Source of the DNA: Bythopirellula sp.
GTDB taxonomy: Bacteria > Planctomycetota > Planctomycetia > Pirellulales > Lacipirellulaceae
Length of the DNA stretch: 64,000 nt
Assembly: GCA_965224625.1 (NCBI GenBank)
Contig: CBDCZS010000003.1
Coordinates: forward strand, 42,661-106,660
Direction: 5' to 3'
In this document: in pieces, positions 21,002-58,474 of the stretch
How the letters are laid out: every line of letters begins with the position of its first letter
Numbering within the stretch: the first letter of the stretch is position 1
Translations under genes and position numbers: made by a program
Notes under the pieces: generated by a model
What the model saw: the letters and a program-made list of their open reading frames with translations, nothing else
Database searches by the model: none
What the model was told of the DNA's origin: nothing

Positions 21002-21062
21002 CGCCCCGGAACCCCGACTGCGATTTCCTTAAGATTATTGAACAGAGACAAGAGACCTAAAC

Positions 21063-23904: not shown

Positions 23905-23936
23905 TAACCCTTGGTTACAAAAAGGTGTAAAAACGC

Positions 23937-23979
23937 AAACACCGCCCTAAGGCCTCTTGGCCTGGGGCGGTGTTTTTTT
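23937..23979 (+). terminator. Intrinsic terminator after 23029-23904
   Basis: Stem aaacaccgccc/gggcggtgttt with inner aggcc/ggcct, followed by a T7 run. Confidence 0.85.
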
Positions 23980-24306: not shown

Positions 24307-25194
24307 ATGAAGTTTACCTACATTTTTACTCGACGCGGCCGCATGGCGCTGGCCGCGGCACTGGGGCTGTTTATTGCCGCCCCGGCAGTTTCTGAGGGCG
24401 CGATTGTCGCGCTCAAGGAAGACGACGCAGCGCTGGACTACTCGATTGAAGGTCAATACTCTACGTCGCCTGCTGGTGGTGATTTCGGTGTTTTTACCCA
24501 GTTTAATGGTCTAACGACTGCGGACGTTGTCGAGGTGCATGTCGACGACATATTACTCAGCGGTGGTGCCGACACAAACCTCGGGCAAGAATTTATTGTC
24601 AACAGTACCGGCAATACCGCCAACCTGGCAGTTCTCATGAAGTGGGATCTCTCTTCGTTGCCTGGGTTTGCAGGATCGACGGTCAACGCCGCTGTGATTC
24701 GCTTCTACCAGACAAACGGCCAAGGCATTCCCAAATGGAGTGCAGTCACGACTCACGACTACGACGAGGCCACCGTCACCCCTGGCAGTCCATCTGGAAA
24801 TCCTGTCGCCGGTACTGCTTCTGGCGTTGGCGACTGGGGCCCCGCTTTGGACAGCCCATTCACCTTTGCTGGAGATGCCAGTGTGGAGACCGCTGTGCCC
24901 CTTGATAACACCGTCGTTGGTCGAGGGTACACCACGTTTAATGTGTTCGCCGACGTGACTGCAATGGCCGCTGGCACACCCAACTACGGCTGGGCTGGCA
25001 CCACGGCCTATCCTGGCACTACGGGCAATCATCCTTATGTTTCGAGTGAGAACCCCAACCCAATTTTTGGTACCGCGGTTGGCGCGACTGCTCCGGTGTT
25101 GTTCATTGATTACACACCCGTACCTGAGCCAACCTCGATGGTTCTTTTGGGTATGGCCGCCTTCGGCTTGACGACAATTCGCAAGCGGAAGTAG
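24307..25194 (+). CDS. PEP-CTERM protein with DNRLRE/CBM96-like domain (paralog 2)
   Basis: Same signal peptide and KWDLSSLPGFAGSTVNAAVIR motif as 23029; VPEPTSMVLLG + RKRK. Confidence 0.85.
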   Translation: MKFTYIFTRRGRMALAAALGLFIAAPAVSEGAIVALKEDDAALDYSIEGQYSTSPAGGDFGVFTQFNGLTTADVVEVHVDDILLSGGADTNLGQEFIVNSTGNTANLAVLMKWDLSSLPGFAGSTVNAAVIRFYQTNGQGIPKWSAVTTHDYDEATVTPGSPSGNPVAGTASGVGDWGPALDSPFTFAGDASVETAVPLDNTVVGRGYTTFNVFADVTAMAAGTPNYGWAGTTAYPGTTGNHPYVSSENPNPIFGTAVGATAPVLFIDYTPVPEPTSMVLLGMAAFGLTTIRKRK

Positions 25195-39475: not shown

Positions 39476-40498
39476 ATGCCAGAAAACTCGCCACCTCGCA
39501 TTTTGATCGTCCGCCTCAGCGCGATGGGCGACGTCATTCATGGCATTCCTGTTTTGCATGCCCTACGCACCGCGTTTCCGCAGGCCTTTCTTGGGTGGGT
39601 TGTTTCGGGGCGCAATGGCGACCTTCTCGAGGGGCACCCCGATCTGGACCAGCTCTTTCGGATTTCTCGACGCTGGTGGAAATCACCGCGTGAAATTTTC
39701 GATTTGCGTCGACAACTGCATGAGCAAAAGTTCGACATGACGCTCGATCTTCAATGCCTGTCCAAAAGCGCGTTTGCAGCGAGGCTCAGCGGCGCGAAAC
39801 GGCGCATTGGCTATAGCGGCAAGCTAGGACGCGAAATCAGCACTTGGTTGAACAACGAACTGGTGGAGGTCGACACCCAGCATGTGATCGACCGCTATTT
39901 GGCAATTTTAAAACCGCTGGGCATCGAAAACCCGTCGGTCGGATTTAATCTGCCCGAGCAAGCCGCCGACGCCGATTTTGCAAAACAAACATGCCAAGAC
40001 CTCAAGCTGCCGATCCACGGATTTGCAATCCTGAATCCGGGTGCGGGTTGGGTCTCCAAGCAATGGCCTGCCGAGCGCTACGGCGAACTGGCCGCACGGC
40101 TGTGGCGGGAAAAACGCTTGCGGTCGTTAGCCGTTTGGGCGGGCGACACCGAACGTCAATTGGCGCAAACGATTGTCGAAGCTAGTACGGGCGGAGCTGT
40201 TCTCGCGCCGGCCACTTCGATGCAACAACTGGCTTCGCTGGCCAGAAAAGCACGGTTGTTTATCGGTTCAGACACCGGGCCGTTGCATCTGGCTGTCGCC
40301 GTCAACACGCCGAGCATCAGCTTGCACGGTACTTCGTTAGCCGCAGAAACCGGTGCCTACGGCAACCAAAACCGACGTCTGCAGGCCGAGTACGACAACT
40401 CTGCTGGAAAGCGTCGCCATGACGACAACCGTGCGATGCGCGCGATCACCACCGACGCAGTCTACGCCGCTTGCGAAGAGCTGCTCTCGTCGCCGTAA
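39476..40498 (+). CDS. Glycosyltransferase family 9 (LPS heptosyltransferase-like)
   Basis: RILIVRLSAMGDVIH; NPGAGWVSKQWP; FIGSDTGPLHLA. Confidence 0.92.
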   Translation: MPENSPPRILIVRLSAMGDVIHGIPVLHALRTAFPQAFLGWVVSGRNGDLLEGHPDLDQLFRISRRWWKSPREIFDLRRQLHEQKFDMTLDLQCLSKSAFAARLSGAKRRIGYSGKLGREISTWLNNELVEVDTQHVIDRYLAILKPLGIENPSVGFNLPEQAADADFAKQTCQDLKLPIHGFAILNPGAGWVSKQWPAERYGELAARLWREKRLRSLAVWAGDTERQLAQTIVEASTGGAVLAPATSMQQLASLARKARLFIGSDTGPLHLAVAVNTPSISLHGTSLAAETGAYGNQNRRLQAEYDNSAGKRRHDDNRAMRAITTDAVYAACEELLSSP

Positions 40499-41103
40499 AG
40501 ATACGGATTAAGCGTCGGGTCGTTGTACATTTTCATTTGCCGGTAAACTTTTAGCAGTTTCTTGCCGGCAAGCAAATCGTCGAGCAGTTCGGTCAGCGAT
40601 TGGGCCAGGTCTGTCTGTTGGGTGCGACAACGGGCAATCTGCTCGGTCACTTTTTCGACGTGCTGTTGGTCGACGTCGGTGCGCTGTAGTTGTTCCTTGA
40701 GGTGATAGATTCTCAAGGACATGATCGACAGCCGATCGACAGCGCTGCCGGGCGTCTCGGTGTTGAGTCTCGCCTCGCTTTTCGGCACCACGCCAGCGTT
40801 ACAAAACATTTTGATCAACGCTTCGTCGATACGCTCGATAAAATCGTTTCGGTTCTGGTTGTAGCCATCAATGGCTCGTTTGACTTGTGCAATGCGTTTG
40901 TCGCTCACCTCTTTGCTACGCGCGACGTCTTCTTCGTGCCAGAGCTGGAAATTGAATGTGTGCTGTGCGCAAACGATGTTTTGCAGTCCCGAGTAAGGAT
41001 TATCTAGCTCACTGTGGTGCCAGCGTTCGACGGTTTCGGCATGTAAGGCGAGTGTCTGCTCGACAAATTCTTTCGGAACCAAGCTAGTACAATCCATTTT
41101 CAT
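40462..41103 (-). CDS. DUF4254 domain protein
   Basis: QLWHEEDVAR, KRAIDGYNQNRNDFIERID and ETPGSAVDRLSI motifs; 37-bp convergent overlap with GT9. Confidence 0.85.
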   Translation of the reverse strand: MKMDCTSLVPKEFVEQTLALHAETVERWHHSELDNPYSGLQNIVCAQHTFNFQLWHEEDVARSKEVSDKRIAQVKRAIDGYNQNRNDFIERIDEALIKMFCNAGVVPKSEARLNTETPGSAVDRLSIMSLRIYHLKEQLQRTDVDQQHVEKVTEQIARCRTQQTDLAQSLTELLDDLLAGKKLLKVYRQMKMYNDPTLNPYLYGDESSSSQAA

Positions 41104-41119: not shown

Positions 41120-42133
41120 CTACTTTTGTACGAATTCTTTGTTATGCAGTTCTCGTTCTGCCAGTTCGAGGTCGTGTTCGACCATGAGCTGGGCGAGTTC
41201 TGCGAAATTGGTTTCAGCTTTCCAGCCGAGATCTTTTTCTGCTTTGCTGGCGTCGCCTAGTAGCAGGTCGACCTCGGCGGGGCGGAAGTAGCGAGGGTCG
41301 ATTTCGACGTAATCTTCCCAGTTCAGATCGAGTTGGTTGAACACCTCATCCAAAAAATCGCGGATCGAGTGGGTCTTGCCCGTCGCGATCACAAAATCTT
41401 CGGGGACGTCTTGTTGAAGCATACGCCACATGGCGTCGACATAATCTTTGGCGTAACCCCAGTCGCGTTTGGCGTCGAGGTTGCCCAGGTAGAGCTTTTC
41501 TTGGAGGCCAATCTTGATGCGAGTGGCCGCCCGTGTGATCTTGCGTGTGACAAACGTCTCGCCGCGTCGAGGCGATTCGTGATTGAACAAAATGCCGTTC
41601 ACGGCAAACATATCGTAGCTGCGGCGATAGTTGATTGTTTGGTGGAAGGCATAAACCTTCGAGCAAGCGTAAGGACTTTGCGGCTGAAACGGGGTGGTTT
41701 CGGTCTGCGGTGTTTCGAGCACTTTTCCGAACATCTCGCTGCTACTCGCCTGATAAACTCGCACCGGTTTGATTTTATTCAATTGCCGGGCCGCCTCCAA
41801 TACATTCAACGCACCGACGCCATCGCTCATCAGCGTGTAGACGGGCTGATCGAACGAAACCCGGACATGGCTCTGAGCGCCTAGATTATAAATTTCGTCG
41901 GGTTGGAGTTCGAGCACCAAGTGCGAAAGCGCCAGGCCATCGGTCAAATCGCCGTAGTGGAGCCGAAGCTGCGACGGTTTGTGGATGTCTTGATAAAGAT
42001 GGTCAATCCTCCCGGTCGAAAAGCTGCTGCTCCGCCGAATCAGACCATCGACTTTGTAGCCTTTTTCGAGCAGAAGCTCTGCCAGATAAGAACCATCTTG
42101 GCCAGTAATACCAGTAATAAAAGCAGATTTCAT
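41120..42133 (-). CDS. gmd: GDP-mannose 4,6-dehydratase
   Basis: [62 protein letters not shown] and PRYFRPAEV. Confidence 0.97.
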
Positions 42134-42213
42134 ATCAAATCAAACAAGGGTTAGTAGGACATTTTTTTTCGTGCTTATTCGTGGCTATTTCTTCATGGCT
42201 AGGATTCTCGCGG

Positions 42214-42951
42214 CTAAGCAGCGACCGAAGCCTGCGAGCGAAGTCGCCAGTTTTCCCAAACAAAGCGATACTGGTAAGTCAGCTCGTGTGTTGCCTGCAA
42301 CCGGCGTTGGATTGCTTCCATGCGTGCTGTCGCCTCGGGGACGAAGGTATGAAACTGTATTTGTAAGTTCTGAAACTGCGAGATGCAACCGGCGTCCAAC
42401 AGACGTTCAAGCAGTTCGTACTCTCCGCCTTCGATATTAATTTTGCACAGGCCGATCTTTGCCCCGTCGAGTCGCTCAAGACCAAGTTGTTCAAGAAAGG
42501 CAGCCGCGTCGCGCAACTCAATCTCGACTTGGTTCGACGACTTTTTCCATTGGCTCGAAGCATCGTCTTCGACCGACAGACTTGTTGTGCAGTTTGTTTT
42601 TGACAGTCCAAACGGGTGAGGCTGGATGCGCTGGTTTCGAGAAAAACGTTTGCAGATCGCGTCGTAATAGGCGGGCATCGGCTCGAAGACATGGATTTTA
42701 CAGCCGTAGCGAGCAAAAATCTCTGCCGCCCACGAACCCTCGTAGCCGCCCAGATCGAGCACTACGTCTTCGGAGCCTAGATCGTATTCGTAGCGCAGCT
42801 TGTTTTCGGATTGGTCCGCACGCCAGCGGCGCAAGCTCGTTTCGTAGTCTTGGTTCAAAATCGCAAGCTGAGGCATTTTGAGAAATCGCACAACGCGATC
42901 ATGCCGCTTGGCAAACGAGCGTTTCCACTTCTTCCAGTTTTTAGAACCCAT
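42214..42951 (-). CDS. FkbM family methyltransferase
   Basis: VVLDLGGYEG, HVFEP and KINIEGGE motifs. Confidence 0.88.
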   Translation of the reverse strand: MGSKNWKKWKRSFAKRHDRVVRFLKMPQLAILNQDYETSLRRWRADQSENKLRYEYDLGSEDVVLDLGGYEGSWAAEIFARYGCKIHVFEPMPAYYDAICKRFSRNQRIQPHPFGLSKTNCTTSLSVEDDASSQWKKSSNQVEIELRDAAAFLEQLGLERLDGAKIGLCKINIEGGEYELLERLLDAGCISQFQNLQIQFHTFVPEATARMEAIQRRLQATHELTYQYRFVWENWRLRSQASVAA

Positions 42952-43107
42952 TCAAATTTCCTATCCAAACGACCGCTCTGCCTCCGAGAACCGCAGCACT
43001 TTTACGGAAATGCCGCTTGTTATGCAAGACAGACTTTAGGCAAGACAGACTTTTGAAAAGGAAGAGTCACGCTAGCACCGATCAATTCTCCTCTGCCTAA
43101 AGAAGCG

Positions 43108-43169
43108 AACCACGACGACACGACGAGCACCACGCAAAAAACCGTGGTGTCCGTCGTGTCGTCGTGGTT
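43108..43169. repeat. Palindromic REP-like element (aaccacgacgacacgacg family)
   Basis: Inverted repeat aaccacgacgacacgacg...caccacg / cgtggtg...cgtcgtgtcgtcgtggtt in the divergent intergenic region. Confidence 0.8.
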
Positions 43170-43308
43170 GATTTTTGATTCTTCGCAAAAGCAAGAGGCT
43201 TTTGGCAGTTTTTCTGTCCTTGAAGCCCAGGTTCTCTTGACGTGCAAGCAGCCTTTTTGTTTATTTGGAGGCCTTCCTCCAAGAATGCCACGCTAGGAAA
43301 ACCGTTCT

Positions 43309-44277
43309 ATGCCTCGAGTTCTGCTAACCACCGGTTGTACGCATTGGCCCTACGCACGCCAAACGCCGCAGCACCTGGGCGTCTGGGAAGATTTCGAATT
43401 TGTCATCGATCAGCAGGACGTTACCTGCGATGCTTGGGTGACGTTCGAGAATCCGACCGAGCCGGTCCGTGCGAACACGATTCCTGAGAACATGATTTTC
43501 CTAACCGGCGAGCCACCCGAACTACGGTCCTATCGCGACGACTTTTTGCGGCAGTTTCGCTGGGTCGTCACCTGTCATGACATCAAACATCAGGGTCTGA
43601 TCGCCAGCCATCAGTCGCAACCTTGGTTTGTCGGCGTCGACTGCGACCGGGGCTACCAAGCGACGCTCGACTACGATTCGCTCTCGAAGATGCCGATGCC
43701 AGAAAAGCCGTTTTTGATCAGCGCTGCGATTTCCGACAAAGCGATCACCGAGGGGCATCGCCAACGCTTGCAGTTGGTTCGACTTCTCAAGGAACGCCTC
43801 GGAGCCGATTTCCACATTCTTGGCCAAGGCCATCAACCGTTCGCCGACAAGTGGGAAGCGGTTGCACCGTATCGATTTCATCTGGCACTGGAAAACGCCG
43901 AGCGCCCGAACTATGTCACCGAGAAAATCGGCGATGCGTTTCTCGGCTATGCCTTTCCGCTTTACTCGGGTGCGCCGAATATTACCGACTTTTATCCCGA
44001 GGGAAGTCTTGAGCCGATTGATATCAGCCGCCCTCTCGAAGCGATCCGAACCATTTGCAGGGCGATCGACAACAACCTTGATGTTCAGCGCCGAGAGCAA
44101 GTCGCGCTCGCCCGCAAAGCCGTCTTCGACGAGTTCAATCTTTTTCCTCGCATGGTTAAAATGCTGCGAGAGCGAATGGTCGACAAGCCCAAGCAATCGA
44201 TTCAACTTTACCCAAAAAACCAGCACTTCAAGCTTGCTTGGTCGGGATTGCGTCGCAATTTGCGAAGAGCTGCGTAA
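43309..44277 (+). CDS. Glycosyltransferase family 10-like (alpha-1,3-fucosyltransferase-like)
   Basis: TGEP; YRFHLALENAERPNYVTEKIGDAFLG-YAFPLYSG matches the GT10 motif. Confidence 0.82.
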   Translation: MPRVLLTTGCTHWPYARQTPQHLGVWEDFEFVIDQQDVTCDAWVTFENPTEPVRANTIPENMIFLTGEPPELRSYRDDFLRQFRWVVTCHDIKHQGLIASHQSQPWFVGVDCDRGYQATLDYDSLSKMPMPEKPFLISAAISDKAITEGHRQRLQLVRLLKERLGADFHILGQGHQPFADKWEAVAPYRFHLALENAERPNYVTEKIGDAFLGYAFPLYSGAPNITDFYPEGSLEPIDISRPLEAIRTICRAIDNNLDVQRREQVALARKAVFDEFNLFPRMVKMLRERMVDKPKQSIQLYPKNQHFKLAWSGLRRNLRRAA

Positions 44278-44305
44278 TTCAATCTTTGGTAGGAGATTCT
44301 CGTTG

Positions 44306-45016
44306 ATGGGTTCCATAAAACAACTGCTCTACAAGGCCTTGGGTGGCCGGTTTCGATCGCGTCAACTGGCGGGTAGGCCTGTGAGCGAGGTCTTTAATGC
44401 GATTTACGATCGCAATGCGTGGAAAGGAAAAGAATCGATTTCGGGCACCGGTTCCAACCTGCAGCAGACGGCTCAGTTGAGTGCTGAGCTGCCTGCGATT
44501 CTGCGTCAACTCGGCGCAACGTCGCTGTTGGACATCCCCTGCGGCGATTTTTATTGGATGCAGCATGTCGACTTGAGTGACGTAACTTACTTCGGTGCCG
44601 ACATTGTCGAAGATCTAATTCACCAGAACAAGGCGCACGAAACAGAGAATCGATCTTTCCTTCACTGCGATCTAATGACCGACCGACTGCCCGAGGTCGA
44701 CGTCATCTTTTGCCGCGATTGTCTGGTTCATTTTTCAGAGGCACACATATGGAAAGCGCTGAAAAACATCGCCCACAGTCAAGCAAAGTTTTTGATCACA
44801 ACGACCTTCACGCAACAAACGAACAAGAAGAAAATCGAGACGGGCCAGTGGCGTCCGCTCAATCTACAAGCGGCCCCCTTCGCCTTGGCCGAGCCGGTGA
44901 TGTTGTTTGACGAAAAATGTACGCAAGATGGCGGCGCGTATCCCGACAAAATGCTCGGTGTCTGGACCCTCGAATCGATCCGTACGACGCTGAGCCAAGT
45001 CCAAGCAGCCGCCTAA
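44306..45016 (+). CDS. Class I SAM-dependent methyltransferase
   Basis: SD aggag then ATG 44306; SISGTGS, LLDIPCGDF.W, YFGADIV, IFCRDCLVH and WRPLNLQAAPF. Confidence 0.85.
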   Translation: MGSIKQLLYKALGGRFRSRQLAGRPVSEVFNAIYDRNAWKGKESISGTGSNLQQTAQLSAELPAILRQLGATSLLDIPCGDFYWMQHVDLSDVTYFGADIVEDLIHQNKAHETENRSFLHCDLMTDRLPEVDVIFCRDCLVHFSEAHIWKALKNIAHSQAKFLITTTFTQQTNKKKIETGQWRPLNLQAAPFALAEPVMLFDEKCTQDGGAYPDKMLGVWTLESIRTTLSQVQAAA

Positions 45017-45040
45017 ATGCCCCGTTAAAACGCAAAGCTC

Positions 45041-46021
45041 ATGTCGACTCCAAAAATTGATGTCGTGATGCCGGTCTACAACGCCGAAGCCTATGTGGGC
45101 GACGCCGTCAGAAGCATTTTGCATCAGTCGTTTGCCGATTTTCGTTTGCTCTGCGTCGACGATGGTAGCACGGATCGCTCTGGCAAGATCCTACAAGAGC
45201 TTGCGGCCGAAGATCCCCGCATAGAAATTATTCACCAAGAGAATCATGGCTTAGTCGGTGCGCTCAACAACGGCCTTTCCGCTTGCACAGCGCCGCTGGT
45301 TGCACGCATGGACGCCGACGATATCTCGATGCCCGAACGGTTTGCTCGACAAGTCGATTTTCTGGGACACAACGCAGACGTCGTTGCTGTGGGAACCTCT
45401 ATCCTTGAAATCGATTCTGATGGCGCTCCACTTGCGGTCCAGCATTTTTCATCTGAACACGAGGAGATCGACGCCGGGATGCTGCAAATACGGACCGGCA
45501 TGGCACATCCGACGGTGATGATGCGGCGCGAAGCCGTTCAGGCAGTTGGTGGATACCGGGCAGAGTACGAGTGGGTCGAAGATCTCGACCTTTGGCTACG
45601 GCTGGCCGAGCAAGGCCGTTTGGCCAACCTACCCGAAGTGCTGCTCTGCTATCGTCAACACGCGTCGAGCGGAAGTTGGAGCGTAGGACGCATTCGCAGG
45701 CAACGGACCATCGCCCTCATGGAAGCAACCTACGCGCGCCGCGGCCTGAGTCTGCCTGAAAGATTGCTCGAGCGTTGTCGGGCACACCGCTCCCCGAGCG
45801 GACCCGGAAAATGGGCGCGCAAAGCCTCGAAGCAAGGCCAGTGGAGCGTTGCATGCAAGCACCTGCGCCGCCAATGGTGTGAATCGCCGTTGAGCCTACT
45901 CACTTGGCGTATGACGCTCGAAGTCGCCGCCCGTTCGACGATCAGCCGCTTGTCGAAAGGCAAATCGACCTTGCCCGAAGTTCCATGCTATCACGCTCCA
46001 TGCTATCACAAGGCCGCCTGA
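45041..46021 (+). CDS. Glycosyltransferase family 2
   Basis: VVMPVYN, VDDGSTD, DxD (RMDADD), HPTVMMR and EDLDLWLR. Confidence 0.92.
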   Translation: MSTPKIDVVMPVYNAEAYVGDAVRSILHQSFADFRLLCVDDGSTDRSGKILQELAAEDPRIEIIHQENHGLVGALNNGLSACTAPLVARMDADDISMPERFARQVDFLGHNADVVAVGTSILEIDSDGAPLAVQHFSSEHEEIDAGMLQIRTGMAHPTVMMRREAVQAVGGYRAEYEWVEDLDLWLRLAEQGRLANLPEVLLCYRQHASSGSWSVGRIRRQRTIALMEATYARRGLSLPERLLERCRAHRSPSGPGKWARKASKQGQWSVACKHLRRQWCESPLSLLTWRMTLEVAARSTISRLSKGKSTLPEVPCYHAPCYHKAA

Positions 46022-46103
46022 AATCGGCGTATCCACGTTTCGGCACAAGGCTTAGACTCGCCTGACACGAAACGATCCACACCCGCTAGGAAAAGGAATT
46101 CCT

Positions 46104-47042
46104 GTGGAAAGCACGGATGCAATTCTCGTGACAGGCGGTACCGGTATGGTCGGTGCCCAACTTGTCGATCAACTTCGGACGCGCGGTTTCTCGCGTCTGT
46201 TGGTCCCTTCGCGCCAGGACATGGATCTGTGTGACGCGCAATCGGTGAATGCGTGGTTCGAGAAACATCGGCCAAAGTATGCTTTCTTAATCGCTGCCCA
46301 AGTCGGCGGAATTGCGGCCAACATGGCCGACCCGACCTCGTTCTTGGCCAACAATTTGAAGATTGCTGTCCACCAGCTCGAAGCGTGCCATCGTTTTGGC
46401 GTTGAAAAACTGTTGCTACTAGGCAGCACTTGCATCTATCCACGCGAATGCCCCCAGCCGATGCAAGAAAAACATTTGTTGACCGGTCCGTTGGAACCGA
46501 CCAACGAAGGGTATGCCATCGCAAAAATCGCGGGGCTTCGTTTGGCGCAAAGTTATTATCAGCAGCACAAGCTCAAGTGTGTGTTGCCCATGCCAAGCAA
46601 TATCTATGGAACCAACGACCATTTTGATCTCGAACGCTGCCATGTGCTGAGCGCGCTGGTCAAACGATTTAGCGATGCTGCCGAAAGCGGCGCGGACGAA
46701 GTCACTCTGTGGGGAACCGGCGTTGCGCGGCGCGAGTTTATTCATGTCGACGACGTGGTCGCGGGGATGCTCCACCTGTTTGATGTCGCGACAGACGGCG
46801 AAATTGTCAACTTGGGCACCGGCGTCGATGTTTCTATTGCCGAACTGGCTACGATCATCGCCGAAGCAACCGGCTATCAAGGCACGATCGCGTGGGACAC
46901 GAGCCGCGCGGACGGAATGCCCCGCAAGTGTACCGACGTCAGCCGCTTGCGTGAGCTTGGCTTTGAACCGCAAATTTCGCTGCAAGAGGGAGTTCGGCGA
47001 ACCGTCGCCGAGTACCGTCAACAGCTTGCAAGTACCACCTAA
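46104..47042 (+). CDS. fcl: GDP-L-fucose synthase / GDP-L-colitose synthase (Fcl/ColC-like epimerase-reductase)
   Basis: VTGGTGMVG, AAQVGGI.AN, LGSTCIYP, LEPTNEGYAIAK, HVLSAL, WGTG.ARREF and DGMPRK. Fcl and ColC cannot be distinguished by eye. Confidence 0.9.
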   Translation: MESTDAILVTGGTGMVGAQLVDQLRTRGFSRLLVPSRQDMDLCDAQSVNAWFEKHRPKYAFLIAAQVGGIAANMADPTSFLANNLKIAVHQLEACHRFGVEKLLLLGSTCIYPRECPQPMQEKHLLTGPLEPTNEGYAIAKIAGLRLAQSYYQQHKLKCVLPMPSNIYGTNDHFDLERCHVLSALVKRFSDAAESGADEVTLWGTGVARREFIHVDDVVAGMLHLFDVATDGEIVNLGTGVDVSIAELATIIAEATGYQGTIAWDTSRADGMPRKCTDVSRLRELGFEPQISLQEGVRRTVAEYRQQLASTT

Positions 47043-47054
47043 GTAGAACTGAAC

Positions 47055-48332
47055 ATGAATCACGACACTCGCCAAAGCCTCGACCAATGGCTCGACAACC
47101 ATTTTGACGAGCCGACTCTCGACGGCGCTCCTTATTGGTATCCGCTGACGTTGCCTACCTACGGCAAAGAGGAAGTCGCTGCGGCGATGACCTGCATGCT
47201 GGACTACCGAACCTCGATGGGTGACCTCACTCGCCAGTTTGAACAAGAATTTGCCCAGTACGTCGGCGCGCACGACGCCGTGATGGTCAACAGCGGCTCG
47301 TCGGCCGATTTGCTGTTGGCGTTTCATCTGGTCAACCCAATGAATCCACGGCTCCAGCCGGGCGACGAAGTGCTTGTCCCCGCCGTAACCTGGCCGACAC
47401 AAGTTTGGTCGCCGCTGATGGCAGGCCTCACAGTGAAACTCGTCGACGTCGATCCGCACACACTCAACATCGATCTCGACGACCTGCGCCGACGCATTAC
47501 CTCGCGCACCAAATGCCTGTTCGCCGTCCACCTGATGGGCAATCCGTGCGACATGGCCGCGATCACTCAGATTTGCGAAGAGCACGATCTTCTGCTGATC
47601 GAAGACTGCTGCGAGTCGCTGGGCGCTTACGATTCTGGAAAACATGTTGGCACTTTTGGACTGGGCGGCACCTTTAGCTTTTTCTTTTCTCATCACATGA
47701 CCACGATGGAAGGTGGCATGGTGATTTGCGGGACCGACGAAGACGCCGAGGCGCTACGCGTCCTACGGGCACACGGCTGGTCACGCGGACTACAAAAATC
47801 AACCGAGAGCACTCCGACCGTCGATTCGCGTTTTCAGTTCGTCAACTGGGGATTCAACGTCCGACCGACCGAGCTGCAAGCAGCCTTTGGCATTCAGCAG
47901 TTGAGAAAACTCGACGCAATGAACGAGCGGCGTCAACAGCTTGCCGCTCGATTCAACGAATTTGTCGACAGTTGCCCCCATCTGAATGCTGTCCAAGTTC
48001 CAGAGACCGCAATCGCCTGCCCGTTGTCGTTAGTCGTCCAACTGAGCGGCAATGCCTCGAACCACCGCAACGAGTTACTAAATCTGCTTGAGCAAGAAGG
48101 CATCGAAACGCGGCCGATCGTCACTGGTAATCTGGCAAGACAACCGGCTGCGTCGCTTCTGGGCGAGATCGACCCGACCGACTTTCCAGGTGCCGAAGTC
48201 ATCCACAACGAAGGTTTTTACGTTGGGCTGAACCCGCAGTTCGACGACGTCATGTTCCAACGCATGCTCCGCACACTCGACGCTTCGCTCAGCAAAGTCG
48301 CCGAGTCGGCTCCCCTCAAAAAATCTGGTTGA
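47055..48332 (+). CDS. colD: GDP-4-keto-6-deoxy-D-mannose 3-dehydratase (ColD-type, DegT/DnrJ fold with His in place of the catalytic Lys)
   Basis: GTFSFFFSHHMTTMEGG has Ser-His where DegT aminotransferases have Lys. YPL..., RAHGWSR, GFNVRP and GIETRPIVTGN match my recollection of E. coli O55 ColD. Confidence 0.8.
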   Translation: MNHDTRQSLDQWLDNHFDEPTLDGAPYWYPLTLPTYGKEEVAAAMTCMLDYRTSMGDLTRQFEQEFAQYVGAHDAVMVNSGSSADLLLAFHLVNPMNPRLQPGDEVLVPAVTWPTQVWSPLMAGLTVKLVDVDPHTLNIDLDDLRRRITSRTKCLFAVHLMGNPCDMAAITQICEEHDLLLIEDCCESLGAYDSGKHVGTFGLGGTFSFFFSHHMTTMEGGMVICGTDEDAEALRVLRAHGWSRGLQKSTESTPTVDSRFQFVNWGFNVRPTELQAAFGIQQLRKLDAMNERRQQLAARFNEFVDSCPHLNAVQVPETAIACPLSLVVQLSGNASNHRNELLNLLEQEGIETRPIVTGNLARQPAASLLGEIDPTDFPGAEVIHNEGFYVGLNPQFDDVMFQRMLRTLDASLSKVAESAPLKKSG

Positions 48333-48343
48333 TCGACCCCACA

Positions 48344-49276
48344 ATGATTGTGACACGACTCAATGGTGGTCTCGGAAACCAACTGTTTCAGTATGCCCAT
48401 GCTTGGCATCTGGCCAAGCAAACCGAGCAAGAATGCTTTCTTGATGTTAGCGAGTTCGAGACCTACCGCGCGCATCCACTGGCGATCGACCATTTTGCGA
48501 TCTCCGCCCGGCGGCTACCCGAATCGCTGCGAGGACGGATGCCAGCGCGCTACCGAGGTGCCTCTCGCATACACGAAGCGGTCGACCGCCTAACCCGTCC
48601 GCTTCGGAACGCCGAGTCGGCCCCACTCCGCTTGCGCCGAGAAAAACCGTTTGGGTTTCAAGCCAAACAGACTCGCCCTGAGAATAACCTCTATCTGGAC
48701 GGTTATTGGCAAGGCGAAGCGTTTTTTCCTGACCTGCGGTCGGAACTGCGCAAAGAATTTACTCTCACAAAGCCCCTGTCGCAACGATCTAGCGAAGTCG
48801 CAGCACAGATGGCCGACGGCAATAGCGTCGCGGTGCATGTCCGGCGTGGCGATTATGTCACCGACAGCGAAGCAGCCAAGATCTTTCGTTGCTTGGATGC
48901 CGACTACTATCGAAGCTGTTTGCAAGATATTCAGCAACACGTCGCCAACCCAAAGGTTTTTCTTTTCTCGAACGATACCGATTGGTGCCTAAAAAACTTG
49001 GACGTCGGACTACCCTTTGTGCCCGTCACACACAACGATGCCTCCACGGCTCACGAAGACCTCTTTCTGATTAGCAAGTGCCGACACGCGGTGATCGCCA
49101 ACAGCTCGTTTAGTTGGTGGGGCGCCTTTCTCGGCGAAGATCGACCGAGACGCAAAGTTTATTACCCCTCTCCTTGGTTCAACCCCGGCTCGCTCGACGG
49201 ATCGGCCCTAGGCTGCGCCGACTGGATCAGCGAAGCGTCGCTATTCGTTCCTCTCGAAAAAACCTTGGCAGCATAA
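48344..49276 (+). CDS. Glycosyltransferase family 11 (alpha-1,2-fucosyl/colitosyltransferase)
   Basis: MIVTRLNGGLGNQLFQYA, YLDGYWQ, VAVHVRRGDY, YY, FSND and IANSSFSWWGAFL. Confidence 0.92.
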   Translation: MIVTRLNGGLGNQLFQYAHAWHLAKQTEQECFLDVSEFETYRAHPLAIDHFAISARRLPESLRGRMPARYRGASRIHEAVDRLTRPLRNAESAPLRLRREKPFGFQAKQTRPENNLYLDGYWQGEAFFPDLRSELRKEFTLTKPLSQRSSEVAAQMADGNSVAVHVRRGDYVTDSEAAKIFRCLDADYYRSCLQDIQQHVANPKVFLFSNDTDWCLKNLDVGLPFVPVTHNDASTAHEDLFLISKCRHAVIANSSFSWWGAFLGEDRPRRKVYYPSPWFNPGSLDGSALGCADWISEASLFVPLEKTLAA

Positions 49277-50484
49277 CCATTTCCCACGCACCAACCCACG
49301 CACCGTATCGAGTTGTTCTCGCTTCTACTCAAGCCGATTGGGGAGGCGGCGAGACGTATTTGACCGACCTTGCCACCGAGTTGCGCAATCGTGGCACCAC
49401 GGTTGAATTTTTGGTTCGAGAGAAGAGCGACCTAGAAAAGCATGTCCGCGAGGCGGGGTTTTCGGTAAAAACCGTTCGTGGTCGGGGTAAGAGCTTGGCA
49501 ACGATCTGGAACTTGCGGCGTTGGCTTGGTCAAGGCGAAAAGCCGACGGTGCTGCACTGCAACGATTCGCATGCGTTGCTGTGCGCAGGCTTGGCGGCCT
49601 TCGGCCAAAAATCGGTACGCGTCGTCGCAATGAAGCACACCCTGTTTCCGATACGTTCAAAACTAAAGTACAAGCGGCTCGCAGATCGCGTGATTTGTGT
49701 CTCCCATGCGATCGCCGATCTTTGCAAGCGTCGAGGTCTGCCCTCCGAAAACGTGCGCACCATTCACTCAGCAATCAAAACGCCACAAGTCGACCCAGCG
49801 GAAGTCGCGTGCCTTCGCAGCCAGTTGCTCCCCACCGAGGGGCACCGTCTAATCGTTGCTATCGGCAATCTGGTCCCGTGCAAGGGGCACCTCACTTTGG
49901 TTGAAGCTGCGGCGCATCTCAAAACCAAAGGTATTCAAGCCCACACGGTCATCGCTGGCGAAGGTTCCGAACGAAAGTCACTCGAAGCAAGAATCAAAAC
50001 CTTGGGCTTATCTGAACATGTCAGGTTGCTCGGTTTTCGCAACGATGCCGACGCCTTGACCGCCGCCGCCGACGTGGTTGTCCATCCTTCACGCGAAGAA
50101 GGCCTGGGCCTGTCGGTAGCAGCCGCCATGATGCTCCAGCGTCCGATCGTGTCGACAGCCGTCGGAGGACTGAAAGAACTGCTGGGCATCGACCCACGCA
50201 TGCAAGCCGCAGGTCCTTTTGCCTCGATTGCCAATCCAGACGATCCTCAGCAATTGGCCCACCTGCTAGCAGCACAACTGGTCAAACCGACCGACCCCGA
50301 ACGCCTACTCGAAGCCCGCAACTACGCCGTCGACCGGTTTGGAATCACCCGTATGACGGACCAGACGCAACGCGTTTATGACGAGCTATGGAGCCGCCCC
50401 CAGCCTTCTCATCTTGACAGAAAAACGGCTCTCTCGATAAACTCTGCCAGCTTGCCCAAGCAGCCCGGTCTCAAAAGTGCTTAG
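49273..50484 (+). CDS. Glycosyltransferase family 4; start uncertain (in-frame ATA 49273 overlapping the upstream stop, or TTG 49174)
   Basis: WGGGE, LHCNDSH, IGNLVPCKGH, GEG..R, LLGFRND, HPSREEGLGLSVAAAM and VGGL.E. Confidence 0.82.
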   Translation: MTISHAPTHAPYRVVLASTQADWGGGETYLTDLATELRNRGTTVEFLVREKSDLEKHVREAGFSVKTVRGRGKSLATIWNLRRWLGQGEKPTVLHCNDSHALLCAGLAAFGQKSVRVVAMKHTLFPIRSKLKYKRLADRVICVSHAIADLCKRRGLPSENVRTIHSAIKTPQVDPAEVACLRSQLLPTEGHRLIVAIGNLVPCKGHLTLVEAAAHLKTKGIQAHTVIAGEGSERKSLEARIKTLGLSEHVRLLGFRNDADALTAAADVVVHPSREEGLGLSVAAAMMLQRPIVSTAVGGLKELLGIDPRMQAAGPFASIANPDDPQQLAHLLAAQLVKPTDPERLLEARNYAVDRFGITRMTDQTQRVYDELWSRPQPSHLDRKTALSINSASLPKQPGLKSA

Positions 50485-50529: not shown

Positions 50530-51432
50530 ATGAAGGTCAGCGGTTTTTCGATTATTCGCGACGGCGTACGGCTAGGCTATCCGTTCCTGGAAAGCATCCG
50601 GTCTGTCTTGCCGCTGGTCGATGAATTTGTGATCGCCGTCGGGGATTGTTCCGACGACACCCGGCAGCAAATCCTAGCGCTCGACATTCCCAATCTGCGA
50701 ATTATTGACACCGTCTGGGAGCCGACCGTCTGCTCGGGCGGCCAGATCATGGCGCAACAAACCAACCTAGCCCTCGACGCCTGCCAAGGCGACTGGTGTT
50801 TTTATATTCAAGGCGACGAAGTGATTCATGAAGGGGATCACGACGCTATTGCGAGCTGCATGCACCGGTGGCTCTCTGACCCGGGCGTCGAAGGACTCAC
50901 CTTTCGCTACCTGCACTTCATGGGCGACTACTCGATTCGCAACCCGCTCGCCTATCGCAAGCAAGTGCGCATTGTTCGCAATAGAAAAAACATTCGGTCG
51001 GTCGGCGATGCTTGTGGTTTTGGTATCGACGGTCGCAAGCTCCGTACCAAGCCAACCGGCGGTCGCGTCTTTCATTACGGCTATGTTCGCCCGCCCGAAG
51101 AAATGGCTCGCAAAAGCACACAGTTTAGTTTTTTCTACCGAGGAGAAAGTCTCAGCCAATTGCCGCCGCCCGACCTGGACGCTGTCGATCCTTGGAGCTG
51201 GGATCTGCGAAGTTGCCGACCCTATCACGGCAGCCACCCGGCCCTCATGTCCACGATTATCGCCAACAAGCACTGGCACATCGATTTTCAGTACACCCCC
51301 TGGTATCGCAACCCAGCCTGGTGGAACGGATTTTTACGCAAGAATTTCAGTAGTCTCTTTCGTTGGTTAGAAAAACGGAAGCAAGTGAAATCGGAGACTT
51401 CCCAGAAACCACCTCGCCGCAGAGCCGCCTAA
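50530..51432 (+). CDS. Glycosyltransferase family 2-like
   Basis: MKVSGFSIIRDG..LGYPF.ESIRS.LP.VDEFVIAVG, QTNLAL, YIQGDEVIHE and HYGYVR. Confidence 0.85.
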   Translation: MKVSGFSIIRDGVRLGYPFLESIRSVLPLVDEFVIAVGDCSDDTRQQILALDIPNLRIIDTVWEPTVCSGGQIMAQQTNLALDACQGDWCFYIQGDEVIHEGDHDAIASCMHRWLSDPGVEGLTFRYLHFMGDYSIRNPLAYRKQVRIVRNRKNIRSVGDACGFGIDGRKLRTKPTGGRVFHYGYVRPPEEMARKSTQFSFFYRGESLSQLPPPDLDAVDPWSWDLRSCRPYHGSHPALMSTIIANKHWHIDFQYTPWYRNPAWWNGFLRKNFSSLFRWLEKRKQVKSETSQKPPRRRAA

Positions 51433-51450
51433 AGCAAAATAATGAAAAAA

Positions 51451-51529
51451 GCCTCACACAGAGGCGCAGAGACCGCAGAGTTTTTGATTCGCTGTATTTT
51501 CTCCGCGTCTCTGCGCCTCTGCGTGAGGC
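51451..51529. repeat. REP-like palindromic element, copy 2 of the 2067 family
   Basis: gcctcacacagaggcgcagag ... ctctgcgcctctgcgtgaggc inverted repeat with a different loop. Confidence 0.85.
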
Positions 51530-51562
51530 TTTCTTGTTTCCTACTGCAAAACGCCACGCACC

Positions 51563-52555
51563 ATGAAAAACATACACATCATCGCGCGGAAAAATGGCGT
51601 CGGCATCGATCGTGATGTCGATTTGATGCAGAGCGTGATGTGCCAACTCGGCGACGTCGACTGGCGGAGCCACAAAAGGCCCGCGCCGCTGCTCAGCCAA
51701 CTCCGCACGCTTTTTCAGACACCTTCGACGTCGCAACTCTTTTTGTTGGCCGAGCGCGTCCCCCGGCTTCTCGGCAAACTGCCGGGCATCGTTGTTTTGG
51801 TGCCGAATCAAGAACGATTTCCTCGCCGCCACCTTAAGCGATTGCGCCGCGTCGACCATGTGCTATGCAAAACCCGCCACGCCGAAGCGTTGTTCAAACC
51901 TTATGCAAAAAACGTCCACTACCTTGGTTTTACTTCAAAAGATCGCAACCTTGCTGCAATCACTCCCGACTACAACCGCTTTTTTCACCTAGCGGGCAAA
52001 AGCACGCTGAAGGGGACCGACGTACTTGTCGACGTCTGGTCTCGCCATCCCGAATGGCCCGAGCTGACCCTTATTCAGTCTGCAGCCAATGCCCCGAAGA
52101 CGGTGCCCAAAAACGTAAAATTGGTGACCGACTACGTCGAAGATGAGGTTTTGCAGGCGATGCAAAACGAGCACGGCGTGCATCTTTGCCCCTCGTTGTC
52201 GGAAGGCTGGGGACATTACATTGTCGAGGCCATGTCGTGCGAAGCCGTAGTCGTCACCACCGACGGACCACCGATGAACGAACTGGTCGCACCCGACCGA
52301 GGGGTGCTCGTCCCCTGGTGCAAGTCAGCACCGCGTCACTTGGGCACCAACTGGCACGTCGACCCCGAGGCGCTCGAAACGGCCATTCAAAAAATTATTG
52401 ACATGCCCGTCGCTCAAAAAAAATCGTTGGGGAAATCCGCTCGGACTTGGTATGTTGCCAATGATCTTGCTTTCCAAGATCGCTTCAAGCAGATCGCCAT
52501 GCAGATGCTCGCATTAGAAACGCCGCCTCTGGCAGAAAAATCGCTTGTCGCCTAG
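51563..52555 (+). CDS. Glycosyltransferase family 4
   Basis: FFHLAGKS..KGT; CPSLSEGWGHYIVEAMS; TTDGPPMNELV. Confidence 0.85.
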   Translation: MKNIHIIARKNGVGIDRDVDLMQSVMCQLGDVDWRSHKRPAPLLSQLRTLFQTPSTSQLFLLAERVPRLLGKLPGIVVLVPNQERFPRRHLKRLRRVDHVLCKTRHAEALFKPYAKNVHYLGFTSKDRNLAAITPDYNRFFHLAGKSTLKGTDVLVDVWSRHPEWPELTLIQSAANAPKTVPKNVKLVTDYVEDEVLQAMQNEHGVHLCPSLSEGWGHYIVEAMSCEAVVVTTDGPPMNELVAPDRGVLVPWCKSAPRHLGTNWHVDPEALETAIQKIIDMPVAQKKSLGKSARTWYVANDLAFQDRFKQIAMQMLALETPPLAEKSLVA

Positions 52556-57310: not shown

Positions 57311-58012
57311 ATGACTGTTTTACGATTTGTGAAGTTTAGTGCAGCGCTTTCGCTCTGCATGTTTTTGGTGGTGCCTTCTACGGCATTCGCCAACCTGCTC
57401 ACCAATCCCAGCTTTGAATCGGGTACCGTAGGCTCGGCACCTGACGATTGGGGTGCCTTTAACTTTGGCACATTTTCGACCAAAGAGGCCTCTATGCCTG
57501 TTACCGGTAATCACTCCCTTAAGATGGGTTCTGCTGGACTTGGCTCGGGTTCGACCGGTGTCTTTCAGGCCGTTTTGAACATCGTTCCAAACACGTCTTA
57601 CACGTTTAATATTTTAGCGAAGTACGATGAAAACAGCGGTTTCGGTCCTGGAGCATCGTTCGGCACAGATGATCTGCCTCTGGGAGTAAACATTCAGCTC
57701 GAATGGTTCCCCGATCCACTCGGCTCAAGCACCGGTGGCATGATTTCCGAGGATGTCCTTACGGGGATGGCCGACCCTGCCAACGGCGCTACCTATCTGA
57801 CTTCCTCTTATCAGCCTTATTCCATTACGGCGACTGCTCCCGCAACAGCAGGTCATGTCCGTGCGGTCTTTAGAGCACGGCACGTTACCCACGATGTTTA
57901 TTGGGAAGATGCCGAGGTTCTGGGGCTACAGGTTCCTGAGCCGGCCTCGCTTGGCTTGGCACTATTTGCAGGCCTTGGTCTGTTGAGCACGAGACGACGC
58001 AGCCAGCGTTAG
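57311..58012 (+). CDS. PEP-CTERM protein with CBM4/9-like (galactose-binding fold) domain
   Basis: Signal peptide; NLLTNPSFES start, YTF, and WEDAEV-like end; VPEPASLGLAL + RRR. Confidence 0.82.
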   Translation: MTVLRFVKFSAALSLCMFLVVPSTAFANLLTNPSFESGTVGSAPDDWGAFNFGTFSTKEASMPVTGNHSLKMGSAGLGSGSTGVFQAVLNIVPNTSYTFNILAKYDENSGFGPGASFGTDDLPLGVNIQLEWFPDPLGSSTGGMISEDVLTGMADPANGATYLTSSYQPYSITATAPATAGHVRAVFRARHVTHDVYWEDAEVLGLQVPEPASLGLALFAGLGLLSTRRRSQR

Positions 58013-58036
58013 TCTCTGTTCGATAGTTCTCAACAA

Positions 58037-58077
58037 CAGCGCGACCTCCAAACAGTTTGGAGGTCGCGCTGGATTTT
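58037..58077 (+). terminator. Intrinsic terminator after 57311-58012
   Basis: Perfect 35-bp palindrome cagcgcgacctccaaac-a-gtttggaggtcgcgctg followed by gattttt. Confidence 0.85.
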
Positions 58078-58474
58078 TAGTTTTCAGAATCGTAATCGGA
58101 ACAGATTAGAAACAAATCAACGGGGGATGCGCGGAGGGACAAGCAGGCAATTCTCCTGAGGATCAGGGATCGCTTGTCACTTGCTGAAGACCAGAGGTAC
58201 GGATGACGGCGTTGAAGACAGCCAATTTGAGGGCCCAAGACCTTCGTTGTTCTTTCGCTGCCGACCTCTCCGGTCAAGCCATCACCACACAAGGCCATCA
58301 CCACACAAAAATGTCCGGTTTGCTTGTCCAACGACGCGACAGACTTGACGCCTAAAGCAGAGCTTGAGGCCACTTTGGCCTCGCACCAATTTGTTCGTAC
58401 TTTGAGTTCAATTCGATAGTATTAATTAGACTGGCCTATTCTTTGGCCTAGAGACGCCTTTAAGGAGAAAAACG

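Follow-up and report, generated by a model that had tools for sequence, protein, structure and literature searches.

The stretch from about 41.1 to 52.6 kb of the window (the whole 64,000-nucleotide piece of planctomycete DNA that was analysed) is best read as a glycan-assembly cluster whose core is a complete GDP-L-colitose branch, and we put the probability of this reading at roughly three in four. In the proposed pathway, Gmd would convert GDP-mannose into GDP-4-keto-6-deoxy-D-mannose, the substrate of ColD. The ColD-type protein would then remove the C3 hydroxyl with the help of PMP, His213 serving as catalytic acid/base where an aminotransferase has Lys, and its cofactor would be regenerated from L-glutamate, with no need for an iron-sulphur cluster or an E3 reductase. 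The reductase of the GDP-fucose synthase (Fcl) family encoded just upstream would act as ColC, carrying out C5 epimerization and C4 reduction to GDP-L-colitose, and the GT11 enzyme encoded just downstream of ColD would transfer the colitose, most likely in alpha-1,2 linkage. A second transferase for this donor class may be the GT10-like enzyme, while the GT2, GT4 and GT1-like enzymes, together with two methyltransferases, would assemble the remaining oligosaccharide and its decorations.

The four genes of the core (gmd, the SDR gene, the ColD-type gene and the GT11 gene) are intact open reading frames at the coordinates given in the first-pass annotation (Table 1). That annotation had listed gmd and then, as adjacent, the other three; the presence of gmd, whose product shares 55% identity with each of the two E. 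coli Gmd copies, was borne out, but an adjacency of gmd to the three was not, as its gene is encoded on the other strand, roughly 4 kb from the SDR, ColD and GT11 genes, with the FkbM methyltransferase, GT10-like, second methyltransferase and GT2 genes in between. On the minus strand, gmd forms a unit with the FkbM gene and the DUF4254 gene, the latter being the last and starting 16 nt past the end of gmd.

Table 1. Features of the predicted colitose cluster and its flanks, in window coordinates.
Feature	Position	Strand	Match or remark
GT9 (heptosyltransferase-family) glycosyltransferase, flanking	39476..40498	+	PF01075, 135 bits
DUF4254 protein	40462..41103	-	PF14063, 180 bits
gmd, GDP-mannose 4,6-dehydratase	41120..42133	-	TIGR01472 equivalog, 529.7 bits (cutoff 415)
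FkbM-family SAM methyltransferase	42214..42951	-	TIGR01444, 46 bits (cutoff 37.7)
Strong hairpin, divergent intergenic region	43108..43169	.	27-nt arms, 8-nt loop
GT10-like glycosyltransferase (alpha-1,3/4-fucosyltransferase family)	43309..44277	+	PF00852, 32 bits (cutoff 23.9)
Class I SAM methyltransferase	44306..45016	+	Methyltransf_12/25 matches
GT2 glycosyltransferase	45041..46021	+	PF00535, 118.8 bits
ColC-like GDP-L-colitose synthase candidate, extended SDR, Fcl family	46104..47042	+	NF047922, 367 bits
ColD-type PMP-dependent 3-dehydratase	47055..48332	+	DegT family, PF01041, 272 bits
Ser212-His213 codons	47688..47693	+	counterpart of Ser187-His188 in E. coli O55 ColD
GT11 glycosyltransferase, candidate alpha-1,2-colitosyltransferase	48329..49276	+	PF01531, 116.9 bits (cutoff 23.9)
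GT4 glycosyltransferase	49114..50484	+	PF13692, PF00534, PF13439 matches
300-aa ORF	50530..51432	+	weak GT2_4 match only (PF13704, 20 bits, below cutoff)
Palindromic repeat element, multi-copy in genome	51445..51535	.	29-nt arms
GT1/GT4-like glycosyltransferase, last conserved gene of the plus-strand unit	51563..52555	+	PF00534, 38.8 bits

The dehydratase and its active site

The best solved relative of the dehydratase in a phmmer search of the PDB was E. coli O55 ColD (2gms; 254.6 bits, E 1.4e-74), to which it is 38% identical across 386 aa. Its Ser212-His213 pair lies within the motif FSFFFSHHMTTMEGG, which aligns to FSSFYSHHIATMEGG of ColD and to the Lys column of the aminotransferases; the replacement of Lys by Ser-His noted in the first-pass annotation was thus confirmed. 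At this position, S-H-H was found in all 26 ColD-like proteins compared, whereas the E1 type has A-H-H and the four aminotransferases have Lys. The E1 iron-sulphur motif C-x-C-x7-C is absent both from the window protein and from the 26 ColD-like proteins.

As a rival reading, the protein could be a CDP-sugar E1-type 3-dehydrase (RfbH/AscC) or a GDP-perosamine-type aminotransferase. E1 has the same DegT fold, likewise carries His where the catalytic Lys would stand and also deoxygenates a 4-keto-6-deoxyhexose at C3, and the perosamine synthase PerA shares both the fold and the substrate GDP-4-keto-6-deoxymannose. Indeed, the RfbH model is the best NCBIfam match of the protein (247 bits), and several homologues carry the JGI automatic name CDP-6-deoxy-D-xylo-4-hexulose-3-dehydrase. 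However, this score is far under the cutoff of 423 and at the level of E. coli ColD (263), whereas the true RfbH type reaches 664. Against the solved structures, E1 (158.9 bits) and PerA (154 bits) fall some 95–100 bits short of ColD. Moreover, E1 has a [2Fe-2S] motif and requires E3, PerA keeps Asn-Lys and transaminates, and no CDP-glucose pathway or E3 gene was seen nearby, while gmd is. In the neighbour-joining tree the protein grouped with E. coli ColD, leaving the E1 type outside (bootstrap 71), and the His-dehydratases were split from the aminotransferases at bootstrap 100. In the comparison with ColD, E1 and PerA proposed in the first-pass annotation, the protein therefore sided with ColD by tree, scores and lack of the iron-sulphur motif. 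An E1-type or perosamine-type identity is effectively refuted by the scores, the absent motif and S-H-H, and we consider it extremely improbable.

The nearest orthologues of the ColD-type protein are from Pirellulaceae (64–70% identity). It carries a 28-residue N-terminal extension, which E. coli O55 ColD does not have, and which is matched from residue 1 only in homologues from Planctomycetota; it is also matched, from residue 6, in Bacteriovoracia.

The reductase: GDP-colitose or GDP-fucose

The SDR gene is separated from the ColD-type gene by 12 nt, in the tight colC-colD order of E. coli O55, and the pair was present in every related locus having upstream DNA. The first-pass designation as fcl/colC-like holds for the family and for the pairing with ColD; yet the protein is closer to canonical Fcl (42% identity to E. 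coli Fcl, 259 bits) than to E. coli ColC (34%, 196 bits), so that some output of GDP-fucose is possible. Taken further, the SDR could be a working GDP-L-fucose synthase that accepts the 3-deoxy intermediate as well, or accepts it poorly, with GDP-fucose made beside or instead of GDP-colitose and the GT11 and GT10 enzymes installing fucose in Lewis/H-type motifs, as in the Gmd/Fcl pathway serving the Helicobacter pylori Lewis antigens, with which the cluster has Gmd in common. This reading draws on the SDR scores against solved Fcl structures (277 and 262 bits), on the invariance of all the Fcl catalytic residues (Ser107, Cys109, Tyr136, Lys140 and His179), on the lack of any other Fcl-family gene in the 64-kb window, and on the presence of both GT10-like and GT11 genes, which belong to the classic fucosyltransferase families. 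In addition, WbgN of E. coli O55 and human FUT2 each transfer L-Col or L-Fuc in vitro, whichever is supplied (PMC11987014).

Unlike the GDP-fucose pathway, however, the window has a ColD gene between the SDR and GT11 genes; a ColD with intact active site, whose translation is coupled to that of the SDR at all loci, would be pointless if fucose alone were made. Under the Fcl model NF047922 (cutoff 500), the window SDR scored 367 bits, E. coli ColC 304 and the ColD-linked SDRs tested 359–393, all below the cutoff, in contrast to 551 for E. coli Fcl. In canonical Fcl loci, gmd was found in 71 of 80 and a nearby ColD in none, and the pairwise distances of the SDRs track those of ColD (r=0.93). The ColD-linked SDRs also fall outside the canonical Fcl clade (bootstrap 99), but this separation is a weak test because the Fcl sample was almost entirely proteobacterial; in the same neighbour-joining tree the SDR did not join E. 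coli ColC in one supported clade (bootstrap 59–70), and the outgroup branch was long. On balance, a mixed or mainly fucose output appears unlikely, and we infer that the SDR has ColC activity.

Transferases and neighbouring genes

The GT11 protein shares the motifs HVRRGDY and NSSFSWWGA with WbgN (29% identity), and its real start is likely ATG 48344. Its gene lies directly 3' of ColD in 16 of the 28 related loci compared, from Planctomycetota, Cyanobacteria and Cryosericum, and the GT11 and ColD distances are correlated (r=0.96). The role of colitosyltransferase put forward in the first-pass annotation is consistent with family and conserved placement, and an alpha-1,2-colitosyltransferase is the probable identity, plausible from the position after ColD; the choice between fucose and colitose stays ambiguous, because both GT11 enzymes tested in vitro take both sugars and the donor cannot be read from the sequence. 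All five PDB matches of the GT10-like protein are alpha-1,3-fucosyltransferases, and the motif ENxxxxxYVTEK is present; in two loci (L008 and L021) a GT10-like gene follows ColD instead of GT11. This enzyme is a candidate second GDP-6-deoxyhexose transferase. In the capsule/O-antigen of Vibrio cholerae O139 two colitoses are arranged as in Lewis b, a precedent for two fucosyltransferase-type colitosyl transfers that would fit GT11 and GT10-like genes in one cluster. The donors that the two enzymes actually use, the linkage, the acceptor and the carrier are inferred, and the H-antigen-like glycan suggested in the first-pass annotation is a tentative reading that depends on the acceptor.

The FkbM-family protein is probably a sugar O-methyltransferase; in 16 of the 28 loci, those of cyanobacteria and Cryosericum among them, an orthologue adjoins the module. 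The second, class I methyltransferase starts at ATG 44306 and not at the overlapping TTG 43820, as read from the translation. With two methyltransferases in the cluster and the FkbM gene travelling with the module across phyla, ColD could act as proposed and the final sugar still be modified or be a different 3,6-dideoxy sugar, either carrying an O-methyl group added by one of these two enzymes or of another C4/C5 configuration; the Pseudanabaena cassette encloses one more methyltransferase gene along with an acyltransferase_3 gene. Nevertheless, other residues could be the methyltransferase targets, the epimerase acid/base pair expected for an L-xylo product (Cys109/His179) is retained in the SDR and, to our knowledge, colitose is the sole known GDP-linked 3,6-dideoxyhexose. 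We hold such a modified or different sugar to be quite improbable.

The GT2 gene, which is kept beside the module in related loci, encodes a protein with 34% identity to a 265-aa glycosyltransferase from the O-antigen cluster of E. coli O55; this protein may make the sugar onto which GT11 acts. The GT4 frame has no ATG in its first ~100 codons, and its real start is probably downstream of 49276; orthologues (50–52%) occur in L001, L004 and L006. Those of the GT1/GT4-like protein (48–61%) occur in L001, L003, L004, L006 and L009, while the 300-aa ORF has none among loci L001–L028 and belongs only uncertainly to the cluster. Upstream, the GT9 gene is convergent with the DUF4254 gene and overlaps its 3' end; it is possibly connected with the LPS core, and is not kept beside the module in the 28 loci. 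The surveyed ~6.9–64 kb of the window contains no gene for Wzx, Wzy or Wzz, for an ABC transporter or for an initiating transferase, so that assembly directly on lipid A-core or another acceptor is possible. DUF1559/N_methyl and PEP-CTERM proteins are also encoded within the window; with the Pirellulaceae affinity of the ColD-type protein, they confirm that the DNA is planctomycete.

In the sequencing runs examined, which behave like low-depth DNA, a contig of run X4 breaks at 43180, by the intergenic hairpin. The palindromic repeat has a second copy at 2067–2138, and at the copy inside the cluster contig depth rises ~3–7-fold and contigs break.

Relation to known colitose pathways

The closest parallel is the module of E. 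coli O55:H7 (Gmd, ColC, ColD and WbgN), which shares with the window the four enzyme families, the tight colC-then-colD order, the Ser-His active site, the RRGDY and SSFSWWGA motifs of GT11 and the related GT2. The differences, besides the missing wzx, wzy and wzz and the strand of gmd, are the additional GT10-like, FkbM and class I methyltransferase genes. A cassette of GT10-like, FkbM methyltransferase, ColC, ColD, GT11 and GT2 genes is common to Pirellulaceae and cyanobacteria.

The first-pass annotation regarded colitose as undescribed in Planctomycetota. A literature search retrieved no paper and no chemical data on colitose in any planctomycete, which agrees with this view; its novelty is weakened, though, as 178 species (5.3% of the surveyed set) already have a predicted colitose pathway according to a genome survey (PMC7725333), and the module was also found here in several other phyla. 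Across the related loci, the SDR, ColD and GT11 genes co-vary as a unit. It is well supported from the sequence that this marine planctomycete carries an intact predicted gene set for colitose, a rare bacterial sugar, and for its attachment to a surface glycan; the set is an ordinary new instance of a pathway already known to be widespread, and its novelty is modest.

Identity of the predicted dehydratase

The protein encoded at 47055-48332 is a DegT-family, fold-type I sugar aminotransferase-like protein (PF01041, 272 bits, profile positions 4-355 of 360). The first-pass annotation had read it as ColD, a PMP-dependent 3-dehydratase; when it was compared with ColD, with E1/RfbH (the CDP-sugar 3-dehydrase with an iron-sulphur cluster) and with the GDP-perosamine synthase PerA, it did group with ColD on scores, motifs and neighbour-joining (NJ) tree. 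A PDB-wide sequence comparison gave 254.6 bits for ColD, 158.9 for E1 and about 154 for perosamine synthase (PerA), and the protein shares 38% identity with ColD from E. coli O55:H7 CB9615 across 386 residues. Nucleotides 47688-47693 encode Ser212-His213, inside FSFFFSHHMTTMEGG; in the HMMER alignment, this segment pairs with FSSFYSHHIATMEGG of E. coli O55 ColD, that is Ser187-His188, and the mutants deposited in the PDB (H188N, H188K and S187N/H188K) pin the exact ColD column. In an alignment of 31 sequences, S-H-H was found in all 26 ColD-like proteins, A-H-H in the E1 type and Lys in all four aminotransferases. An aminotransferase of the PerA type is thus excluded by the missing active-site Lys.

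The other alternative, an E1/RfbH enzyme, corresponds to the name 'CDP-6-deoxy-D-xylo-4-hexulose-3-dehydrase' that JGI gives to homologues of the protein, and RfbH is also the best NCBIfam match of both the window protein and E. coli ColD. Both matches are below the model cutoff of 423, the two proteins scoring 247 and 263 respectively, and a genuine RfbH-type protein (locus L017) scores 664. The RfbH-type protein has the iron-sulphur motif C-x-C-x7-C, which is missing from the window protein and from all 26 ColD-like proteins; the window enzyme is therefore predicted to require no E3 partner. In an NJ tree built with limited sampling, the His-dehydratases are separated from the aminotransferases with a bootstrap of 100, and the window protein falls together with E. 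coli ColD, with the E1 type outside, at a bootstrap of 71. Scores, motifs and tree together lead to the rejection of E1/RfbH, and the JGI names are likely to be mislabels. Judged by its sequence, the protein is a ColD-type dehydratase, with a predicted glutamate-dependent deoxygenation of the GDP-sugar at C3; its gene is linked to gmd in the same cluster and to an Fcl/ColC-family reductase gene (SDR) directly upstream.

The closest named orthologues (64-70% identity) are from Rhodopirellula sallentina, Rubripirellula, Aporhodopirellula and Roseimaritima. With these orthologues and the DUF1559 and PEP-CTERM proteins described below, the organism was placed in the Pirellulaceae. In the metagenome-assembled genome of Rhodopirellula sp. 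JB055 (L007, 9980-11305), the orthologue is split in two ORFs (9980-10870 and 10871-11305), the mark of a pseudogene or else of a fault in the assembly.

Organization of the cluster and the partner reductase

All the ORFs named in the first-pass annotation were found by ORF reading as intact genes, and the four that it had assigned to the synthesis and transfer of colitose (gmd, the reductase, ColD and a GT11 transferase) are all present; gmd, however, is encoded on the opposite strand and is about 4 kb away from the others. The cluster is composed of a minus-strand and a plus-strand unit, and the genes of the latter are separated by short gaps or overlap. Beyond the GT1-like gene are a SASA-family esterase and then unrelated genes.

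Genes of the cluster and their positions in the window
Gene	Coordinates	Unit	Remarks
GT9 (heptosyltransferase family)	39476-40498		convergent on minus-strand unit; overlaps 3' end of DUF4254 gene by 37 nt
DUF4254 protein	40462-41103	minus	third gene, after gmd; co-oriented with gmd, starts 16 nt after it
gmd	41120-42133	minus	second gene
FkbM-family methyltransferase	42214-42951	minus	first gene
GT10-like	43309-44277	plus
Class I methyltransferase	44306 (true start)	plus
GT2	45041-46021	plus
SDR	46104-47042	plus
ColD	47055-48332	plus
GT11	48329-49276	plus	likely start ATG 48344
GT4	ends at 50484	plus
300-aa ORF	50530-51432	plus	unconserved; no orthologue in relatives
GT1-like	51563-52555	plus

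Gmd scores above its equivalog cutoff (TIGR01472, 529.7 vs 415 bits). The GT9 and DUF4254 genes could be read as belonging to LPS core synthesis, but this is a guess, because relatives do not share their adjacency beside the module. The ORFs scanned (about 6.9-64 kb of the window) include no wzx, wzy, wzz, ABC transporter or initiating transferase. DUF1559/N-terminal-methylation proteins and several PEP-CTERM proteins are also encoded in the window; six proteins carry the PEP-CTERM tag (18637-25194 and 57311-61252), and a TPR-sulfotransferase is found at 25328-26926. The PEP-CTERM proteins and the TPR-sulfotransferase suggest a context of exosortase-type secretion and exopolysaccharide around the glycan cluster.

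The SDR is a member of the GDP-fucose synthase family, with 367 bits against NF047922 (cutoff 500) and scores of 277 and 262 bits with Fcl proteins of solved structure. Residues S107, C109, Y136, K140 and H179, invariant in the alignment that includes it (A1), are those of the Ser-Tyr-Lys triad and the Cys/His epimerase pair. It is closer to E. coli Fcl (42% identity) than to E. coli ColC (34%), and the two E. coli proteins share 39% identity; as a discriminator, similarity to one or the other of them was uninformative, E. coli ColC being itself divergent. The SDR of Brachyspira, for example, adjoins a ColD 64% identical to that of E. coli, yet is nearer to Fcl than to ColC. On the Fcl equivalog, the score is 551 for E. 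coli Fcl, 304 for E. coli ColC, 367 for the window SDR and 359-393 for five SDRs linked to ColD in four phyla.

It is genomic context, not direct similarity, that decides on the most likely role of the SDR. Wherever upstream DNA is available among the 28 related ColD loci (L001-L028), an SDR gene immediately precedes ColD, as it does in E. coli O55 and, with a gap of 12 nt, in the window. Conversely, of 80 canonical Fcl loci (62-91% identity to the E. coli enzyme, nearly all proteobacterial), 71 have gmd, but a ColD gene is nearby in none. The canonical Fcl proteins form a clade (bootstrap 99, with an almost wholly proteobacterial Fcl sample) that includes none of the ColD-linked SDRs, and the pairwise distances of the latter follow those of ColD (r = 0.93). 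The ColD-linked SDRs are not united with E. coli ColC in a single well-supported group: the Brachyspira SDR and E. coli ColC are placed apart from the window group with a bootstrap of 59-70, with a long outgroup branch and limited Fcl sampling. The SDR, the only Fcl-family gene within the 64-kb window, most likely performs the ColC step, a predicted C5 epimerization and C4 reduction of GDP-4-keto-3,6-dideoxymannose, and may have some GDP-fucose synthase activity besides.

Transferases and a cassette shared across phyla

The gene following ColD encodes a GT11 protein (PF01531, 116.9 bits, cutoff 23.9), which shares 29% identity with WbgN, the GT11 colitosyltransferase of E. coli O55, and the motifs HxRRGDY and SSFSWWGA are common to the two in the alignment. 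Its comparison with solved structures gave no match. In 16 loci, which belong to Pirellulaceae, several cyanobacteria and Cryosericum, ColD is directly followed by a GT11 gene, and the GT11 distances track those of ColD (r = 0.96). This synteny with ColD is the single line of evidence that makes GDP-L-colitose a candidate natural donor of the enzyme. The GT10-like protein of the window retains the motif ENxxxxxYVTEK, and its only matches in the PDB are alpha-1,3-fucosyltransferases; in Roseimaritima (L008) and in a Pirellulaceae metagenome-assembled genome (L021), a GT10-like gene replaces GT11 after ColD. The GT10-like protein is a candidate second transferase for the donor class of GT11. The GT2 protein is 34% identical to a 265-aa glycosyltransferase of the O55 cluster, which we take to be the beta-1,3-galactosyltransferase WbgO. 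The H-antigen-like glycan proposed in the first-pass annotation is plausible. Both WbgN and FUT2 accept GDP-L-colitose as well as GDP-fucose in vitro, and the study concludes that the glycan made is dictated by the availability of substrate (PMC11987014); therefore, ColD and ColC, where both are present, are the best predictor of colitose being installed.

The set made up of the GT10-like, FkbM methyltransferase, SDR, ColD, GT11 and GT2 genes recurs, largely or wholly intact, in Pirellulaceae, Pseudanabaena, Aphanothece and Cryosericum (L001-L010, L012, L016, L020 and L022, around 7000-13000 in each), and the gene distances co-vary (r = 0.93-0.96). In Pseudanabaena sp. UWO311 (L016, 650-7249), the cassette, which also includes an acyltransferase_3 gene and one more methyltransferase, stands directly behind gmd and an ABC-2 permease/ABC ATPase pair (Wzm/Wzt-like), and is therefore part of an ABC-transporter-type polysaccharide cluster in cyanobacteria. 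In contrast, no such transporter is near the window copy. One hypothesis is that the cassette is mobile, perhaps encoding a conserved and possibly methylated terminal motif. A more specific reading, which we consider unlikely, is that the six genes are a horizontally shared unit building one conserved O-methylated, colitose-bearing, Lewis/H-like terminal cap, an epitope on the surface polysaccharides of aquatic bacteria in several phyla, among them Pirellulaceae, Pseudanabaenaceae, other cyanobacteria and Cryosericum; this cap could have a chain-terminating role in ABC-transporter-type clusters such as that of Pseudanabaena.

Some further features of the locus and its relatives were observed. 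Upstream of the module in Rhodopirellula sallentina SM41 (L001, 1784-4526) there are genes for a sugar C-methyltransferase (Methyltransf_13/14), a dTDP-4-dehydrorhamnose 3,5-epimerase and an SDR, that is a second deoxysugar branch, which the window lacks. A strong hairpin (43108-43169; 27-nt arms, 93% complementary, 8-nt A-rich loop), unique in the window, lies between the divergent FkbM-gmd and GT10...GT11 units and is immediately followed by a break in one assembly; a regulatory or terminator-like function is possible. A palindromic repeat with 29-nt arms (GCCTCAC(A/G)CAGAGGCGCAGAGA...) is present in two copies, at 2067-2138 and at 51445-51535, the latter just downstream of the 300-aa ORF, the sole one in the cluster without an orthologue in relatives. 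The depth of contigs increases about 3-7-fold at this second copy, where the contigs of three runs also end; the repeat is therefore a multi-copy REP-like element of the Bythopirellula genome. The public sequencing runs carrying window DNA (X1, X2, X4 and X6) show flat low depth and long contigs, are DNA-like, and are therefore uninformative on transcription. An invertebrate metagenome run (X5) contains 81% of the sampled words from 46104-49276 (SDR, ColD and GT11), and a ColD homologue with 73% identity (P0014) is a contaminant in the assembly of the isopod Idotea baltica. Evidently, close relatives of the window organism are associated with marine invertebrates.

Annotation of ColD and significance for Planctomycetota

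Public pipelines call ColD orthologues, E. coli ColD included, generic DegT aminotransferases or, wrongly, CDP-sugar E1 dehydrases. In the RefSeq annotation of the E. coli O55:H7 CB9615 O-antigen region (L031, 5701-7787), the structurally characterized ColD is only a 'DegT/DnrJ/EryC1/StrS family aminotransferase', ColC a 'GDP-L-fucose synthase family protein' and WbgN an 'alpha-1,2-fucosyltransferase'. The best NCBIfam match of both ColD proteins, a sub-cutoff RfbH, suggests that NCBIfam has no ColD-specific model, and this accounts for the generic labels of the planctomycete genes.

The route through Gmd, ColD and ColC is a known pathway (PMC8987622). A survey of 12,939 genomes predicted it in 719 of them, belonging to 178 species (5.3% of those surveyed; PMC7725333), and a verrucomicrobial endosymbiont has annotated ColD and ColC genes (PMC8204192). 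In a literature search, no publication was found that describes colitose from Planctomycetes or cyanobacteria. The assignment to a predicted colitose pathway is solid and the correction of the annotation is useful; it would not surprise a specialist, and the understanding of the pathway itself is unchanged.

The envelope glycans of Planctomycetota are poorly characterized, and colitose, if chemically confirmed, would be an addition to their sugars; the organism would then also be a marine, non-pathogenic source of Gmd, ColD, ColC and GT11 enzymes for the production of GDP-colitose and colitosylated glycans. More speculatively, the cassette in common with cyanobacteria hints at an exchange of surface epitopes among aquatic bacteria, which could affect their recognition by phages and grazers.
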